DNA of 64,000 bases from a virus. The first letter of the stretch is position 1; every line of letters begins with the position of its first letter. The position numbers and the translations under genes were made by a program. Under the pieces are notes generated by a model. That model ran no database searches, was not told the DNA's origin, and saw nothing but the letters and a program-made list of their open reading frames with translations. Location of the stretch: positions 46,070-110,069 of IMG/VR virus record IMGVR_UViG_3300032163_000003; one strand, 5' to 3'. Shown one piece after another: positions 22,543 to 41,099 of this stretch.

Positions 22543-23292
22543 TTAGTTTTCTCCTTTTGTTTGGTCCATCCCACAGACATTTTCTTTATCCTCTAGCAAC
22601 TTTTTAATATCTTCTTTTACTTGATCTAGAGTTGGAAATTTCTGAAAAATATTGTATCTTAAGAACTTCCATCCCTCTTCTTCAATTTCTTGTTGTCTTC
22701 TCTTATCGTATTCTTTTCGATCTTCTTTGTAAAAATGATACCAACCATCAAATTCTAAAATAATTCCTAAACTAGAATCAGCTATATCTACAACATAATT
22801 TCTTTTTCCTTTTCCTCTATAAATAGGAAATTTATGAATTGGTCGTGGAAGAAGTGTACAAGTCATATAGAAAAGTTCGTTTTCTGGTTTAGAATCATCT
22901 GAAATACAAGAACACATATAGACCGCTTGCCAATCCTTCATTCGTTTTGATTGTCTCTTCCTGCTTTCTTTCGTTACGAAACTAGCTGTGTAACTCGCTC
23001 CTCCATTTTTCATATATTCTGATTGAATTCTACATTCCTCGTGAGTTTCTTTAGTTCTACCAGTTATTTTTTCTGCTTGAATTCTTCTTCCTTCATGGTT
23101 CTCTTTTGTTCTTCCTATAAGTTTTTCTGCTTGTTTCTTTCGTCCTTCGTTATTTTCTTTCGTTCTTCCTCTTTTTGGGTCTCCTGTTCTTTTCTTTATT
23201 ACTGGACAAGAATTCTGACTCTCACTACAACATCGTTTGCCATTCTTTAACGTATGCTTCCCTTCTTGTCCACAACCATATTCACAAAGCAT
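22543..23292 (-). CDS. Homing-type endonuclease: CxYGCG module + GRTKE repeats + Vsr/DUF559-like domain
   Basis: MLCEYGCGQEG; three GRTKE..E repeats; LEFDGWYH...GWKFLRY. Confidence 0.75.
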   Translation of the reverse strand: MLCEYGCGQEGKHTLKNGKRCCSESQNSCPVIKKRTGDPKRGRTKENNEGRKKQAEKLIGRTKENHEGRRIQAEKITGRTKETHEECRIQSEYMKNGGASYTASFVTKESRKRQSKRMKDWQAVYMCSCISDDSKPENELFYMTCTLLPRPIHKFPIYRGKGKRNYVVDIADSSLGIILEFDGWYHFYKEDRKEYDKRRQQEIEEEGWKFLRYNIFQKFPTLDQVKEDIKKLLEDKENVCGMDQTKGEN

Positions 23293-23603: not shown

Positions 23604-23678
23604 AGGCGGCAGAGGGACTCGAACCCCCGATGTCGGTTTTGCAGACCGATGCTTTAAAACCACCTTAGCTATACCGCC
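23604..23678 (-). tRNA. tRNA-Cys(GCA)
   Basis: TCGGT-CT GCA AA-ACCGA; U73; CCA not encoded. Confidence 0.9.
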
Positions 23679-26104: not shown

Positions 26105-26182
26105 TGGTAGCCCATGCAGGACTCGAACCTGCGACCTAGGACTTAGAAGGACCTTGCTCTATTCCACCTGAGCTAATGGGTC
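26105..26182 (-). tRNA. tRNA-Arg(UCU), with stem mismatches
   Basis: AGGTC-CT TCT AA-GTCCT; acceptor GACCCAT/ATGGGCT; ACCA. Confidence 0.8.
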
Positions 26183-26863
26183 TTTTCTATGAGTCTTTAA
26201 GTTAAACTTATAGTTCTTAGTTAAAGAATGATGATTTGGACACAAAAGTTCTAAATTTTCTTCTATTGAACTAAATCTATTTCCATCTATATGATGTAGT
26301 TCTAGAGGAATTAGATTAGTAAATTGATTTACTTCTGACCATCCACATACAGAACATTTATTGTTGTATTTTTTTAGGATGTACTTCCTTATAAGAGTAG
26401 AAGCACCACCTGATGTATTTCCAGAAATTTTTCCGTCTTTCCATTTACTTATATATTCTTTATATTTATACTCACTATGACAAAAACCATTGCAAAACTG
26501 TTTCATCCACTTAATAACTTTCCCGCAATTTTTACAGTAGCTTATTCTAAAAAATTTTGGTATTCTATTTTTGTTGTTATAGAAAGCAGCACATGTACTA
26601 TTACAAAATTTTTTATTGTGGTTTATTTCCTTGTTACACCATAGGCAATATTCTATCGTACATGTTTTTTTATGAAGAGGAAAAGCCATTGATCCAACTG
26701 TCTTATTACACACCGGACATAAAACTCTAGGTTTGGATTTAAGCGAGATTGAACTTCGATTTCTTTTTCCTGGACATTTATTAATACTATTACTACAACA
26801 TCGTTTCTTTCCAATTTTAAACTTTGATTCTTGACCACATCCGTATTCGCATAACATATACAT
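26159..26863 (-). CDS. HNH homing endonuclease with CxYGCG module; stop inside tRNA-Arg D-loop
   Basis: MLCEYGCGQES; LELHHIDGN...NLELLCPNHH; ends DPLAQVE*. Confidence 0.85.
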   Translation of the reverse strand: MYMLCEYGCGQESKFKIGKKRCCSNSINKCPGKRNRSSISLKSKPRVLCPVCNKTVGSMAFPLHKKTCTIEYCLWCNKEINHNKKFCNSTCAAFYNNKNRIPKFFRISYCKNCGKVIKWMKQFCNGFCHSEYKYKEYISKWKDGKISGNTSGGASTLIRKYILKKYNNKCSVCGWSEVNQFTNLIPLELHHIDGNRFSSIEENLELLCPNHHSLTKNYKFNLKTHRKDPLAQVE

Positions 26864-26914
26864 ATCTCCTTTTAGTATATGTTCTATATACGAATACGAA
26901 TGGGAACACTCCTT

Positions 26915-34866: not shown

Positions 34867-34953
34867 TGGCGGAGGGTGCAAGACTCGAACTCGCAAGTCT
34901 GTTACAACGGTGGGGTTCAGACCCACTCCCTTACCAATTAGGGTTAACCCTCC
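34867..34953 (-). tRNA. tRNA-Ser(UGA) with C33
   Basis: GGAGGGT/ACCCTCC GCCA; GTGGG-TC TGA AC-CCCAC; long variable arm. Confidence 0.82.
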
Positions 34954-35660
34954 TCATATAATTTAATAAAATCTTTTCCATATGTGTCTATTACATACGA
35001 AAATATATTTTTCATTTCTTCTTTCATTAATACTACTAATTTTCCTGGAAATTGTTTAATCTTTTCGTTAGTTTGCTCACATAGAAATGATTTTACTTCT
35101 ATATAGGTATCATCAGGATATTTATAGTCTGGAACATATTTATAAACTTTTCCGTTCCAAAAGTAATCAAACTTTTTAGAATTTCTTTTAAACTGAATTT
35201 TGTTATCTAAATGATAGATAACAAAAGCCAATTCCCAAGATGAGTCACACCAGAATCCTTTGTACCAGCCTTTCTTCCCGATTCCAGATCCTTGTCTGTA
35301 TCCTCCATTATTAGATATTAAAGCTTTCTCTTTTATTTTTCTTCTTCGCTCTTTCTCTTTCTCTTCAGTTTTGGCCATTCCAGTAAGATGTAAACTAGAG
35401 ATTGACTTAGAAAGTTTCTTTTTAACTTCTATACTTCTTTCTTTTCCAAATATCTCCTCGTAATTTTTTCCTTTAAGTGGAGACAATTTTCCTAACCATG
35501 GTTTTGGATGCCCATTTTTCCACTTTGGACATTTTCCTTTTTTCTTTAAACTATCAAGTCTTCGTTTTTCTGGACATTTATTCATACTATTAGAACAGCA
35601 CCACTTTCCGTTCTTAAACTGATATTTTGCTTCTTTTTTACAACCATATAAACATAACAT
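34944..35660 (-). CDS. Homing-type endonuclease: CxYGC module + PD-(D/E)XK domain; stop inside tRNA-Ser
   Basis: MLCLYGCKKEAKYQFKNGKWCCS; DSSWE...YVPDY...YIEVKS; ends LYEEG*. Confidence 0.8.
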   Translation of the reverse strand: MLCLYGCKKEAKYQFKNGKWCCSNSMNKCPEKRRLDSLKKKGKCPKWKNGHPKPWLGKLSPLKGKNYEEIFGKERSIEVKKKLSKSISSLHLTGMAKTEEKEKERRRKIKEKALISNNGGYRQGSGIGKKGWYKGFWCDSSWELAFVIYHLDNKIQFKRNSKKFDYFWNGKVYKYVPDYKYPDDTYIEVKSFLCEQTNEKIKQFPGKLVVLMKEEMKNIFSYVIDTYGKDFIKLYEEG

Positions 35661-35661
35661 A

Positions 35662-35699
35662 TTTTGATCTCCTATTTATTTGTTCTAAGAAGATCAAAA
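35662..35699 (-). promoter_or_regulatory. SD-occluding hairpin with promoter-like motif in the loop
   Basis: TTTTGATCTTCT/AGGAGATCAAAA 12-bp stem; loop contains AGAACAAATAAAT. Confidence 0.65.
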
Positions 35700-35732
35700 C
35701 TTGCGCCATAAACCAGACTCGGCCAACTCTCC
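35694..35732 (-). pseudogene. Orphan 5' half of tRNA-Ser(UGA), broken just after the anticodon
   Basis: GGAGAGT TG GCCGAGTCTGGTTTATGGC G CAAGT TT TGA. Confidence 0.8.
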
Positions 35733-37798: not shown

Positions 37799-38297
37799 TG
37801 ATTTTTTCCTCCTTTTTACTTCCCGAATCTAGTCTCATTCTGTGACATTTAGCGCAAGTAGTTATCCAATTTGATTGTTCCATCAAAGTATAATCTTTTG
37901 CGATAGATGTACAATGCATTGATAAAGACTGTTGTGTGTCTTGAATTTCTTCTTCATTTATTTTTCCACATAATTCACAGTTTTGTTTCCCAAACAACTC
38001 TTTAGCTTTGTCATGCTAGTAAAGACTACATCCTCCTTTCCATGACGAATGACTTTCTCCATATTTTCCAAATAAATAGTTATTTTTTCCAGAATTAGAT
38101 AGATTTTTTCTTCCAAGTTTTAATTCTCTAATCCTTCTTCTAACTTCTAATCTTTTAGTTGGGTTATTTTCCCCAGAAAAAGCTTTCCTTCTTTCTGAAC
38201 ATTTTTTGTAATGATCTGAACAGCATAACCTTCCATTCTTAAATTGATATTTTGCTTCTTGTCCACAACCATAATCACACAATCTCATTAAAGTCAC
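37779..38297 (-). pseudogene. CxYGCG-module HNH-like endonuclease interrupted by an in-frame TAG
   Basis: 38016..38297 and 37779..37997 share a frame: SLY*HDKAKELFGK...NWITTCAKCH. Confidence 0.65.
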
Positions 38298-38299
38298 CT

Positions 38300-38779
38300 T
38301 TACATAAAACTTTCTACCATCGATGGTCTATTACTTTTTAAATAATGAGCGATGAGTTTTCCAATTTCCTTCGCTTCAGCTTCAACATATCCGTCTTTTA
38401 TTAAATCTTGTTGAAATCTCAATACCGTCAGATATAAAGCATCTTGACTAATCCACTCTCTTCCAAGACTAGCTAAGAACATTTGAAAGATTTTTGGAAT
38501 TACTACGCCCTTATGCTTCCATTCAATCTCTCTTCTCTTTTGTACGTCTTTTCTCCAGCTGTTTAGATTCATACAACATCCTTCTTCAGCATAGAGTTCC
38601 TTTCGATAGATCTCTCCAAGATTTCCTGGAAGTTGCATGAGCATACATATATATCTTTTTCTATCTTCGTTCCATTCTAAAGCCGGACAAACTTCAGCTG
38701 AAGTATAAAGTCTAACTGCTGCTCCGCATTTAGCTTTGAAGCAGCAGAATCCACATCCAATACATTCATCTATTTTCAT
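38300..38779 (-). CDS. CxxCxxCC (YkgJ-like) Cys-cluster protein
   Basis: CIGCGFCC...CPAL...YIC. Confidence 0.45.
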   Translation of the reverse strand: MKIDECIGCGFCCFKAKCGAAVRLYTSAEVCPALEWNEDRKRYICMLMQLPGNLGEIYRKELYAEEGCCMNLNSWRKDVQKRREIEWKHKGVVIPKIFQMFLASLGREWISQDALYLTVLRFQQDLIKDGYVEAEAKEIGKLIAHYLKSNRPSMVESFM

Positions 38780-38991
38780 TTTTTACCTACGACTTTCTCA
38801 ACCCAGTCCAAGTGTCCGGTCCCATTACATTTTTCACAAAACACCTCTGCTTTCCAAGAAATGTACCCAGAAAATCCAACAATATCAAAATCATGTTTTG
38901 TGTATCTTCCTTTTCCTTTACATCTTGGGCAGTTGTACTTGGGTTCTCCAATAAGAACATCGCACAACCAGAAAATTATTCTCTCTAACAT
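38776..38991 (-). CDS. CxxCxGxG/DW family protein
   Basis: CPRCKGKG...CEKCNGTGHLDWVEKVVG. Confidence 0.65.
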   Translation of the reverse strand: MLERIIFWLCDVLIGEPKYNCPRCKGKGRYTKHDFDIVGFSGYISWKAEVFCEKCNGTGHLDWVEKVVGKK

Positions 38992-39014: not shown

Positions 39015-39089
39015 TGGAGCCACCAGAAGGATTCGAACCCTCGAAAGTTGATTACAGGTCAACCATTTTTCCATCTAAATTATAGTGGC
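39015..39089 (-). tRNA. tRNA-Thr(UGU) with C33
   Basis: GCCACTA/TGGTGGC TCCA; GTTGA-CC TGT AA-TCAAC. Confidence 0.8.
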
Positions 39090-39684
39090 TAAACTTTTCT
39101 AAGAATTCTTTTTCATATTTTTCTACTTTTTCAATTATTACTTCTTTAAACTTACAATGTATATACTTATGATGAGTTGGACAAAGAGGAATCAAATTTT
39201 CCGGATTTATATTTTGTTTATTTTCGTCTAAGTGATGAACATCAACAATAAGATTCTCTTCACATATTATGCATTTTTTTTCATGAAATTGAAAGCAAAC
39301 TTCTCTATACTTATACTTTCCATTATCCTCTTCATAGTTTTTGTTGAAAAACCTCCTGGCGCATCTATTAGAACATGTTTCAGTTAAAGTATAATATTTT
39401 ATAGGTTTTTCACAAATTGGGCAAAGTTTTAAATTTTTAGGGTTTAAGTAGCATGTTTCAGAATGTTTACTAATATTGGATGAAGTTTTTTCTTTTTTAC
39501 AAAATTCACACGGAACTTTTTTATATTGTCCATTGCTTTTAGTCCCATTCTTATACATTTGAAACTGACGTTCTGAATTCTTTTTTCTTAAAGATGGACA
39601 TCGTTGATAAATTTCATTACAACACATCTTTCCACTTTTTAGTTGATAAATCCCTTCTCTTCCACACCCATATTGACATAACAT
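39052..39684 (-). CDS. HNH homing endonuclease with CxYGCG module; stop in tRNA-Thr anticodon loop
   Basis: MLCQYGCGREG; VDVHHLDEN..N....NLIPLCPTHH. Confidence 0.85.
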   Translation of the reverse strand: MLCQYGCGREGIYQLKSGKMCCNEIYQRCPSLRKKNSERQFQMYKNGTKSNGQYKKVPCEFCKKEKTSSNISKHSETCYLNPKNLKLCPICEKPIKYYTLTETCSNRCARRFFNKNYEEDNGKYKYREVCFQFHEKKCIICEENLIVDVHHLDENKQNINPENLIPLCPTHHKYIHCKFKEVIIEKVEKYEKEFLEKFSHYNLDGKMVDL

Positions 39685-39763
39685 GGTGTATTCCTCTCTA
39701 TTTAGATCTTTATTATATGTTCTAACTTAAGGAGAAATTGGTAGAGTGCCAGATCTTCAACTC

Positions 39764-39800
39764 TACCAATCAACCGTTCCTATCATTAGACAATTCGGGC
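39764..39800 (-). pseudogene. Orphan 5' half of tRNA-Thr(GGU), broken after position 37
   Basis: GCCCGAA TT GTCTAATGATAGGAAC G GTTGA TT GGT A, overlapping an 11-bp inverted repeat (39737..39770). Confidence 0.7.
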
Positions 39801-40056: not shown

Positions 40057-40124
40057 AAAGGGTGGGGAGATTTTACTCCCATCTTCTCATCTACCAGATG
40101 AGGCTTTAATTAAGCTACACCCTT
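40057..40124 (-). tRNA. Minimal non-canonical tRNA-like gene, GGU (Thr) anticodon
   Basis: AAGGGTG/CACCCTT, GCTT/AAGC, CTCAT-CT GGT AG-ATGAG, GGGAG TAAAAT CTCCC. Confidence 0.6.
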
Positions 40125-40126
40125 GT

Positions 40127-40202
40127 TGGTCGGGGTGGCAGGACTTGAACCTGCGACATCTCGGTCCCAGGCCGAGGACTCTACCAACTGAGCTACACCC
40201 CG
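40127..40202 (-). tRNA. tRNA-Pro(UGG) with C33
   Basis: C1:G72, A73 CCA; CTCGG-CC TGG GA-CCGAG. Confidence 0.88.
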
Positions 40203-40207
40203 ATAGT

Positions 40208-40675
40208 TTAACAAATCTTAAATCCACCACAATCCAAAAGAAAGTTTCGAAACTCCTTTACATTTTCCTCGCTGAATGGATATTCAACATCGAGAGCCTC
40301 CCTTTTCCCTTTTCCTTTACACCCGTTACATTCCATATCTCCTGGACCAATATTTGGTGGGGGTTGTCTCTTTCCTGTACCTCCACAAACAGTACAATCT
40401 TCTAGAGGAATCTCCTCTAACATTTTGATATACTCTACCTCATACTTTTTCACTTCACCTGAATCTAAAAGTTCTGTGAGTCTTTTACTCAGTGCGAGAG
40501 ACCTAGTGCAATTTAGACCCCACCCATCATTACTATGTCCACCGTTGTCTTTTGAAATTAAGTCTGGTGCTGCTTGTACACAATAGTTCCATAAAGGTCT
40601 CCACCACCAAACATTGTTTCTAAAATATTCTCCAGTCTTAGATTTTGGTTTTCTTCCGTAAACATCCATTCCCAT
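40208..40675 (-). CDS. Conserved-looking phage protein with inserted DnaJ-type Zn finger
   Basis: MGMDVYG...YFRNNVWWWRPLW; CTVCGGTG...CNGCKGKG. Confidence 0.55.
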   Translation of the reverse strand: MGMDVYGRKPKSKTGEYFRNNVWWWRPLWNYCVQAAPDLISKDNGGHSNDGWGLNCTRSLALSKRLTELLDSGEVKKYEVEYIKMLEEIPLEDCTVCGGTGKRQPPPNIGPGDMECNGCKGKGKREALDVEYPFSEENVKEFRNFLLDCGGFKIC

Positions 40676-41099
40676 TATTCATCATCCTCTTTTCTATCAG
40701 TTAAAAGTTCAAAAGATTTGGCGTTCTCCAACGAAGAAGGGTATGAACCACCAAGACGCCTAAAAAATATCTGCTCTCCTTTGATGTTATATTGATACTC
40801 TGCCCAATCTCCGTAATGTTCTATATCACCAATTTCATAATCATCTGAGCAAATTATATTACCTCTTCTAGTACCATTTTTAATTTCTTGTTCTGTCAAT
40901 GAATGTTTTTTAGTTAATTCTTCTACACGTTCTTTATTTAATTCTTCCCTAATGGTTTTGTCTGCGAAATCGATTGAATGTTTCTTAGCAACAACAATGA
41001 TACTTTTCAGACTTTTGTCACATTCAAGAAGATCTATTCCTAACGAGCCAGGATATCCATCCCAGTGGGTAGCAATCATTAGTTTATCATCTATTGAAA

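Follow-up and report, generated by a model that had tools for sequence, protein, structure and literature searches.

Organization of the locus

The window, the whole stretch of 64,000 nucleotides that was analyzed, belongs to a virus contig of 110 kb (G+C content of 35%). All 22 tRNA genes that ARAGORN identified in the window are located on the minus strand. Along this strand, the locus is organized in the order tRNA-Pro, a tRNA with the anticodon GGU, ORF78, a short tRNA-like segment (hereafter the stub), an inverted repeat, the leader of an HNH endonuclease gene, the HNH gene itself, and tRNA-Thr(UGU). The individual features and the evidence for them are:

40202-40127, minus strand: tRNA-Pro(UGG), part of the tRNA cluster
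40124-40057, minus strand: tRNA with the anticodon GGU according to the Rfam alignment (Rfam, 42 bits; missed by ARAGORN)
40039-39803, minus strand: ORF78, 78 amino acids
39800-39775, minus strand: the stub, probably the decayed 5' end of a former tRNA gene (global alignment)
39736-39771, no strand assigned: 34-bp near-palindrome with 11-bp arms (repeat search, RNA fold, identity to tRNA-His)
39692-39733, minus strand: leader of the HNH gene (RNA fold and motif search)
39052-39684, minus strand: HNH endonuclease gene, very probably of the homing type, 210 amino acids (ORF list, homologs, profile matches)
39015-39089, minus strand: complete tRNA-Thr(UGU) (ARAGORN; Rfam tRNA model, 56.4 bits, E-value 5e-11)

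HNH endonuclease

The gene located upstream of tRNA-Thr(UGU) is intact and encodes an HNH (His-Me finger) endonuclease. The ORF matches PHROG 1271, annotated as HNH endonuclease, with an E-value of 3e-9, and a profile that combines the ORF with 24 of its relatives can be aligned to IscB (9nvu) over the HNH domain, with an E-value of 5e-4. Residues Cys138, Cys141, His150, His151, Asp153, Asn163, and Cys168 are invariant in the alignment of homologs, and His171 and His172 are nearly invariant, so that the columns of the HNH pattern CxxC...HH...N...CxxHH are all present. In the Pfam search, the ORF did not reach a curated cut-off; the best model was HNH_3, with a score of 19.1 bits against the required 24.8 bits and an E-value of 0.001. 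The domain PF13391 is among the precomputed annotations of some of the homologs.

The protein can be divided into an N-terminal cysteine-rich module with the signature CxYGCG, cysteine-rich repeats in the middle, and the C-terminal HNH domain. The N-terminal module, with the extended pattern CxYGCG...CC...CP, is common to six ORFs of the genome, in which it is joined to nuclease domains of different kinds: HNH, DUF559, and an unnamed domain that belongs to a second tRNA-associated nuclease of the window, the product of cassette 1.

Overlap of the HNH gene with tRNA-Thr(UGU)

The anticodon loop of tRNA-Thr(UGU) has the sequence CC-UGU-AA, with a cytosine at position 33. The HNH ORF and the tRNA overlap by 38 nucleotides, and the first 38 nucleotides of the tRNA thus double as the last codons of the ORF and its TAA, which corresponds to U36-A37-A38 of the anticodon loop. 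The first-pass annotation of the stretch, made from its letters and a list of ORFs, had recognized both the HNH ORF and the stop codon inside the anticodon loop of a tRNA-Thr(UGU), and the profile matches, the Rfam score, and the nucleotide sequence itself bear it out on both points.

The homologs show no conservation of the C-terminal tail for which the tRNA sequence codes, and the overlap therefore has no function in the protein. Other ORFs of the cluster that do not encode nucleases, including one for a SpoU methylase, also extend into the next tRNA, and where their frame permits they stop exactly 10 nucleotides into it, at U8-A9-G10. The frame of the HNH gene misses this stop codon, and the next one is by chance that of the anticodon loop. 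We take the position of the stop codon to be a matter of reading frame rather than a device. The distance from tRNA-Thr(UGU) to the next ORF is only 23 nucleotides. The tRNA-Thr of the window and the HNH-linked tRNA-Thr of locus L003, one of the closest homologous loci, share 53 of 74 positions, which is no special likeness, and the comparison thus lends no support to the transfer of the HNH gene and tRNA-Thr as a pair.

Leader of the HNH gene

The leader is predicted to fold into a stem in which the segment UUCUCC pairs with the ribosome-binding site GAGAGG. The loop of this stem contains a promoter-like motif, TTAGAACATATAATA, at positions 39711-39725. The shorter motif GAACATATA, which the first-pass annotation had pointed out and which is indeed present, occupies positions 39714-39722; its one other copy in the window, at 26876-26884, precedes another HNH gene. 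The tRNA region contains two more CxYGC nuclease genes, and the motif precedes both of them (26886 and 35687), often within such a hairpin; the closest homologs of the HNH gene (loci L002-L006) also have a leader with the motif in a hairpin. The TAGAACA motif is additionally found before a few ORFs of the genome that do not encode nucleases, one of which we take, from its N-terminus, to be possibly a terminase. Because genes other than those of nucleases carry it, the motif more likely represents a promoter of the phage than a portion of the nuclease target.

HNH relatives in tRNA clusters

Homologs of the HNH protein number 152. Gene contexts were compared in 80 viral loci that were collected by a profile search and encode 68 distinct proteins. 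The family is found almost exclusively in tRNA clusters in these loci. The stop codon of the ORF lies inside a tRNA of the same strand, or within about 15 nucleotides of one, for 44 of the 68 distinct proteins, and this tRNA is tRNA-Pro(UGG) in 37 of the 44 cases. About a dozen more HNH proteins have a complete tRNA-Pro 4-95 nucleotides upstream of their genes, and a clade of 24 proteins (support of 96) is linked almost purely to tRNA-Pro. With this context, the gene in the window is very probably a tRNA-linked homing gene, and we consider its membership in the tRNA-linked HNH family to be genuine.

Fragments of tRNA genes accompany many of the relatives. Stubs of tRNA-Pro that comprise positions 1-39 of the tRNA model are located 22-51 nucleotides before the start of the HNH gene in L014, L015, L017, L020, L022, L023, L038, and L046, and the stub of L055 reaches position 46. 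Beyond the tRNA of the cassette, 3' fragments that comprise positions 52-77, corresponding to the T arm and the acceptor strand, are present in L017, L019, L020, L022, L025, L030, and L055. The acceptor strands of stub and 3' fragment are complementary to each other (CGGAGTA and TACTCCG, CGGAATG and CATTCCG, CGGAACG and CGTTCCG) and do not pair with the cassette tRNA; the two fragments therefore represent the two ends of a single resident gene. In these relatives, the stub is a tRNA-Pro(UGG), and so is the spare copy. Across at least four distinct resident sequences, the ends of the stubs cluster at the border of the cassette (positions 38-39). Internal deletions in the stubs of L013, L025, and L030 indicate that the stubs in the relatives are dead remnants rather than exons.

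Over 584 nucleotides, the cassettes of L017, L022, and L023 show 96-97% identity, and their HNH proteins form near-identical tips of the tree; the adjoining stubs are only 81-84% identical. The closest homologs of the HNH protein from the window, those of L002-L006, are encoded between complete tRNA genes and have no stubs, which counts against the reading of the window's stub as a relic. In L021, L041, and L065, the HNH gene is surrounded by two complete tRNA-Pro genes.

Filled and empty sites

A search of viral contigs with the 34-nucleotide stub of L017 identified three interrupted copies and 12 intact tRNA-Pro genes. Among them, the contig of L017 (L132) is colinear with contig L120, with 94% identity on both sides of the site. 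At the site itself, the two differ in a single respect: 739 nucleotides in L132 (2938-3676) take the place of 14 nucleotides in L120 (2200-2213). The 14 nucleotides are positions 39-52 of an intact tRNA-Pro, and the 739 nucleotides contain the leader, the HNH gene, and a complete tRNA-Pro that is distinct from this one, along with about 170 additional nucleotides. The insertion point follows tRNA position 38 in L132 and approximately position 46 in L055. In the relatives, the leader, the HNH gene, and a complete tRNA thus form a mobile cassette whose insertion site is a resident gene for the same tRNA isotype. The alignments show that the cassette destroys the resident tRNA gene, leaves a 5' stub and sometimes a 3' remnant, and supplies a complete, presumably working copy of the tRNA.

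The comparison of filled and empty sites, which the first-pass annotation had proposed, was thus possible in the relatives; it did not extend to the site in the window itself. A search of a phage collection matched the window through tRNA-Pro only. Searches with the beta subunit of RNA polymerase yielded one viral contig with 54% identity, which contains no tRNAs; the ORF at 38300-38779 had no match in viral contigs, and the RNA polymerase subunit reached only 27-30% identity in metagenome contigs. Contigs from four sediment runs match the flanks of the locus at 38300-38887 and 40059-40680 with about 88-90% identity, and none of them bridges the segment 39191-40000. No relative of the window's phage that lacks the HNH gene was found in the viral contigs, the metagenome contigs, or the four sediment runs.

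Stub upstream of the HNH gene

The stub is located on the same strand as the tRNAs and starts two nucleotides past the stop codon of ORF78; the real tRNAs of this cluster likewise follow the stop codons of ORFs. The sequence GCCCGAA takes the place of the acceptor strand and is followed by UU and a D arm that has one mismatch and lacks G18-G19. In a global alignment to the 5' halves of about 550 phage tRNAs, the 39-nucleotide stub has a score of 12, compared to a null of 2.9 +/- 2.3, and 2 of 2500 windows score as high. The first 26 nucleotides have a score of 11 against a null of 3.4 +/- 2.0, matched by 2 of 3000 random genome windows. The likeness to the acceptor strand and D arm of a tRNA corresponds to a P of about 7e-4 per window, which becomes a borderline value of only about 0.05 after allowing for the approximately 80 possible starts in the spacer. 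The best matches of the stub are tRNAs for Thr, Asp, and Leu, from which the isotype is not readable.

Other searches did not distinguish the stub from its background. The Rfam tRNA model gave no match at E-values of up to 10, with the stub either in its context or cut at position 37. In controls with the same cut, the half of the real tRNA-Thr reached 14.4 bits and the tRNA-Pro stub of L020 reached 18.3 bits. The clear tRNA-Ser stub of cassette 1 fails the truncated Rfam test as well, and the test is therefore of low power. The lack of a covariance-model score had been named beforehand as grounds for giving up the stub; the score is indeed lacking, in a test that a clear stub also fails. The stub was not found with 20 purpose-built isotype HMMs in nhmmer, which counts for little because the Rfam-positive tRNA at 40057-40124 was missed, too. 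BLAST of the stub against phage records returned matches at chance level only, and local alignment to 690 tRNAs gave a score of 24, not above that of shuffled controls (23 +/- 2.2). Direct reading of the sequence that follows the cassette in the window revealed no 3' tRNA remnant.

The first-pass annotation had described the stub as the 5' half of a tRNA-Thr(GGU) that ends at position 37. What remains of this description is the tRNA-like character of the first 26 nucleotides. The stub may extend to approximately position 39762, the earlier 'anticodon loop', where the sequence TTGGTAG fits a GGU anticodon loop and is equally the classic motif of a D loop. Since the region past position 26 is ambiguous in this way, it is not possible to read which anticodon the lost gene had, and the identification of this gene as Thr(GGU) is doubtful. 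The stub and tRNA-Thr(UGU) do share GTTGA and differ in their acceptor strands (GCCCGAA and GCCACTA), as had been noted. The proposal that the cassette swapped the anticodon finds no support: the anticodon of the stub is unreadable, and an Rfam-positive tRNA with the anticodon GGU is still present at 40057-40124. The stub is at best a decayed relic and not a well-formed Thr(GGU) half; we consider it probable that it derives from a broken tRNA gene.

Palindrome between the stub and the leader

The perfect 11-bp inverted repeat reported in the first-pass annotation is present at 39737-39747 and 39760-39770, with 12 nucleotides between the arms. The arms, ATTGGTAGAGT and ACTCTACCAAT, flank a central AGATCT and form with it a 34-bp near-palindrome, which folds as RNA into a predicted 12-bp hairpin. 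Inverted repeats of at least 10 nucleotides are not rare in the window, with 32 occurrences in 64 kb, or about one per 2 kb. A terminator scan found nothing at the hairpin.

Both arms of the palindrome read as the D-loop motif of a tRNA, and ATTGGTAGAGT is the standard form of this motif. On the plus strand, nucleotides 39736-39754 match a tRNA-His from L071 (positions 14-32) with 19 of 19 identities and a score of 38 compared to 22.7 +/- 1.9 for shuffled sequences. This likeness suggests that the palindrome could be tRNA debris, with two D-arm-like pieces arranged head to head. A hairpin arm placed over the anticodon had also been considered as a design common to both cassettes. The correspondence is loose: the arm of cassette 1 is part of the hairpin in which the ribosome-binding site is hidden, and the one here is part of a separate palindrome.

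Nuclease of cassette 1

Next to the nuclease gene of cassette 1 is a tRNA-Ser stub (35695-35732) that corresponds to positions 1-36 of the tRNA, with an E-value of 0.004, and is the best nhmmer match in the 64 kb apart from the tRNAs. Homologs of the C-terminal domain of this nuclease are located in tRNA clusters. A tRNA-Ser directly follows the gene of the homolog in L086-L089, and a 5' stub of tRNA-Ser precedes the ORF in L085. Proteins that match only the N-terminal module (L093-L117) are not encoded near tRNAs, which indicates that the link to tRNAs goes with the nuclease domain.

Origin of the locus

The explanation that we consider probable, including an old break of a tRNA gene and the control of expression, is that a free-standing HNH homing gene became lodged in the tRNA cluster directly upstream of tRNA-Thr(UGU). 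An old insertion event between ORF78 and tRNA-Thr would have left a decayed 5' relic of 26-38 nucleotides and the tRNA debris that forms the palindrome, and nothing of the 3' part. The enzyme is predicted to cut or nick the tRNA gene of a co-infecting phage that does not carry the cassette, after which repair would copy the HNH gene together with the linked tRNA. The cassette tRNA might be spared from cutting because its anticodon stem and its variable loop are different. An illegitimate join on the upstream side only, made without homology, would leave the 5' part of the resident gene as a stub, and we propose it as the reason why some stubs, such as that in the window, have no 3' counterpart. 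Expression of the nuclease is probably low, with the promoter-like motif placed inside the hairpin that hides the ribosome-binding site. Furthermore, the cut of RNase P at the 5' end of the tRNA would strip the last 38 nucleotides and the stop codon from the HNH message, comparable to what is proposed for segB and tRNA-Arg in phage T4.

The HNH gene could instead be an ordinary intergenic homing endonuclease gene that broke no tRNA, next to which the stub is a chance likeness and the hairpin acts in termination, in processing, or as an operator. We regard this as unlikely, and several observations speak for it: the stub has no tRNA score in Rfam or nhmmer, its D loop and D stem are defective, inverted repeats of this size are frequent, the nearest homologs have no stubs, and overlaps with tRNAs also occur in ORFs of this cluster that do not encode nucleases. 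Chance does not readily account, however, for a segment whose first 26 nucleotides match tRNA 5' ends better than 2998 of 3000 random genome windows and which lies on the tRNA strand at the distance from an ORF stop that is usual for tRNAs here. The 19-of-19 match of the palindrome, the frequency of stubs in the HNH family, and the undoubted tRNA-Ser stub at the other nuclease gene of the window point in the same direction. A local duplication of a tRNA followed by decay through a 3' deletion, with the separate arrival of the HNH gene, is a more remote prospect. Duplicates do occur in phage tRNA clusters, as illustrated by the paired tRNA-Pro genes around the HNH gene in three of the relatives, and the odd second gene resembling tRNA-Thr(GGU) at 40057-40124 lies nearby. 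Decay by deletion is made less likely by the stub ends of the relatives, which cluster at the cassette border in several resident sequences, and by the pair of L132 and L120, in which insertion and loss are a single difference. A tRNA-Ser half also accompanies the nuclease of cassette 1 as the top non-tRNA match of nhmmer; the stub here is detected by global alignment only.

The possibility that the HNH gene is encoded in a self-splicing intron, with the stub as the 5' exon, was rejected as practically negligible. Group I introns that contain endonuclease genes are known from the anticodon loops of bacterial tRNAs, and the stub ends near the anticodon. Nevertheless, neither group I introns nor any other family of ribozymes matched the segment 38500-40400 at E-values of up to 10. 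The acceptor strand GCCCGAA of the stub has three mismatches in seven positions with the 3' strand UGGUGGC and does not pair with it; the downstream tRNA is complete by itself, and stubs of the relatives contain deletions.

The wider proposal is that cassettes widespread in phages, with HNH nucleases or, as at cassette 1, a PD-(D/E)XK-like nuclease, break a resident tRNA gene and deliver a spare that is resistant to cleavage, and that they may be a main driver of the turnover, duplication, and horizontal spread of phage tRNAs. We put this forward tentatively. A general tRNA-targeting homing strategy had been suggested in the first-pass annotation, and it gains from the tRNA linkage of the relatives, their split tRNA-Pro genes, the break in identity between cassettes and stubs, the filled and empty sites of L132 and L120, and the tRNA-Ser stub of cassette 1 with the tRNA-Ser neighbors of its relatives. 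The presumed Thr(GGU) stub of the window is the weak part of the case.

Discussion

The closest known cases are SegB of phage T4 and the F-Tfl enzymes of phage T5 (F-TflI-IV), the genes of which are free-standing and located between phage tRNA genes, as is the HNH gene here. SegB recognizes the T-psi-C motif of tRNA genes and drives the inheritance of the tRNA region, and the processing of tRNA-Arg makes a cut beside the stop codon of segB, which was proposed to damp the expression of segB (PMC2330249). The linkage of SegB to phage tRNAs is wide (PMC13096335), and SegB homologs are able to amplify phage tRNAs. The HNH gene is similar to segB in that it would spread together with neighboring tRNA genes, in that the end of its ORF adjoins a tRNA so that processing would cut the message near the stop codon, and in that its predicted target is the DNA of a tRNA gene, which for SegB is the T-psi-C stem-loop. 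Unlike the HNH enzyme, SegB belongs to the GIY-YIG group, and its gene is placed between whole tRNA genes. The HNH family also differs from SegB in its CxYGCG N-terminal module and its linkage mostly to tRNA-Pro.

Free-standing endonuclease genes that carry a partial duplicate of a neighboring gene (atp6, cox1, or atp9) occur in fungal mitochondria (PMC7487136). As in the cassettes described here, the endonuclease element brings along a copy, or part of a copy, of its target gene, and the displaced piece remains as a pseudogene without splicing. The Allomyces atp6 element was reportedly described by Paquin, Laforest and Lang in 1994. The fungal elements differ in that they affect protein genes of an organelle, encode GIY-YIG or LAGLIDADG enzymes, and usually duplicate only the end of the gene, whereas the phage cassettes contain a whole tRNA.

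Intron-encoded and free-standing endonuclease genes of phage T4 are regulated by a hairpin that contains a late promoter and sequesters the ribosome-binding site, as reportedly described by Gott et al. in 1988 and by Gibb and Edgell in 2010. The leader of the HNH gene, like those of L002-L006, is organized similarly: the stem that is predicted to form with the Shine-Dalgarno sequence before the start codon has a promoter-like motif in its loop. The motif (A/T)TAGAACA(A/T)A is unlike the late promoter of T4, and its role is read here from the nucleotide sequence and the predicted fold.

Phage tRNA clusters are now regarded as tools against host defenses that target tRNAs. To our knowledge, the gain, loss, and exchange of the genes in these clusters are poorly understood. 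A literature search identified no description of a phage tRNA gene split by a cassette that combines a nuclease with a spare tRNA. The window alone is a weaker, decayed example, in which the tRNA relic is probable, and it adds a second class of nuclease. The pair of L132 and L120 provides a concrete substrate and enzyme. If the proposed mechanism is correct, a homing element that breaks the tRNA gene of a competitor and puts its own copy in place would have a third means of avoiding harm to its carrier, besides splicing and placement between genes. The debris of tRNA genes and the palindromes would then be readable footprints of the sites cut by the enzymes, and the spread of a selfish element would be tied to the flow of tRNA genes among phages.

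Cassette insertion into a tRNA-Pro gene

The contig L132, which carries an HNH and tRNA-Pro cassette, and the colinear phage L120, in which tRNA-Pro is intact, form a clean filled/empty pair (L132 2938–3676 versus L120 2200–2213). The 739-nt cassette of L132 takes the place of 14 nt of the L120 gene, which correspond to tRNA-Pro positions 39–52. The flanks of the site are 94% identical, and a 12-nt direct repeat, CGAATCCCACCA, is located near the right junction.

Additional tRNAs and C33 in anticodon loops

The following tRNAs and tRNA-like sequences were detected:

40057–40124, minus strand: tRNA, anticodon GGU (Thr) by alignment, Rfam 42 bits
25967–26012, minus strand: tRNA 3′-half-like stretch, nhmmer, Tyr model positions 39–87, E 0.022
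L086 101–174: tRNA, anticodon CUA, labelled Pyl by ARAGORN
L092 839–916: tRNA, anticodon CUA, labelled Pyl by ARAGORN

The GGU tRNA, located 2 nt after a tRNA-Pro, exceeds the Rfam tRNA gathering score of 29; despite this match, it was not called by ARAGORN. Its T loop is short and unusual (UAAAAUC versus UUCGAAU), and the tRNA is kept in sediment-metagenome relatives, in contigs spanning 40059–40282. The 3′-half-like stretch overlaps no called tRNA. The two phage contigs with CUA tRNAs, which are possible amber suppressors, also encode relatives of the cassette-1 nuclease, the second nuclease class of the window.

The near-universal U33 is replaced by C33 in three tRNAs of the window:

39015–39089, minus strand: anticodon loop CC-UGU-AA
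34867–34953, minus strand: anticodon loop UC-UGA-AC
40127–40202, minus strand: anticodon loop CC-UGG-GA

The tRNA-Thr of a related phage in sequencing run X4 retains CCTGTAA despite a different anticodon stem. C33 could be a consequence of evading either an anticodon nuclease or the homing enzyme.

Shared module and upstream motif of the nuclease genes

Six ORFs of the virus genome share an N-terminal CxYGCG...KNGK.CCS...CP module, which is fused to differing nuclease domains (DUF559, HNH, and an unnamed domain):

22543–23292, minus strand
26159–26863, minus strand
34944–35660, minus strand: cassette-1 nuclease
38016–38297, minus strand: 93 residues
39052–39684, minus strand: HNH ORF
genome position 43008, minus strand

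The 93-residue ORF looks like a truncated copy of this type with a NUMOD3-like piece. Loci L093–L117, which match the module only, have no tRNAs nearby.

The motif (A/T)TAGAACA(A/T)A, with a TATAA-like box after it, is positioned 24–87 nt upstream of ORF starts:

window 39725, 35688, and 26887
genome 12044 (plus strand); 45693, 30616, and 7720 (minus strand)
upstream regions in L002–L006, the loci with the closest homologs of the HNH protein

The ORFs preceded by the motif include three nuclease genes and one that, from the appearance of its N-terminus, we take to be a possible terminase. The motif often occupies a hairpin loop, and the hairpin in question pairs with the ribosome-binding site. 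We regard the motif as a candidate promoter in this group of phages.

ORFs ending inside tRNA genes

Four minus-strand ORFs, including that of a SpoU methylase, lack a stop codon of their own (ORF ends at window positions 23669, 26983, 33788, and 34944) and terminate exactly 10 nt into the next tRNA, whose U8-A9-G10 serves as the stop. Therefore, tRNA processing would sever the messages upstream of their stop codons.
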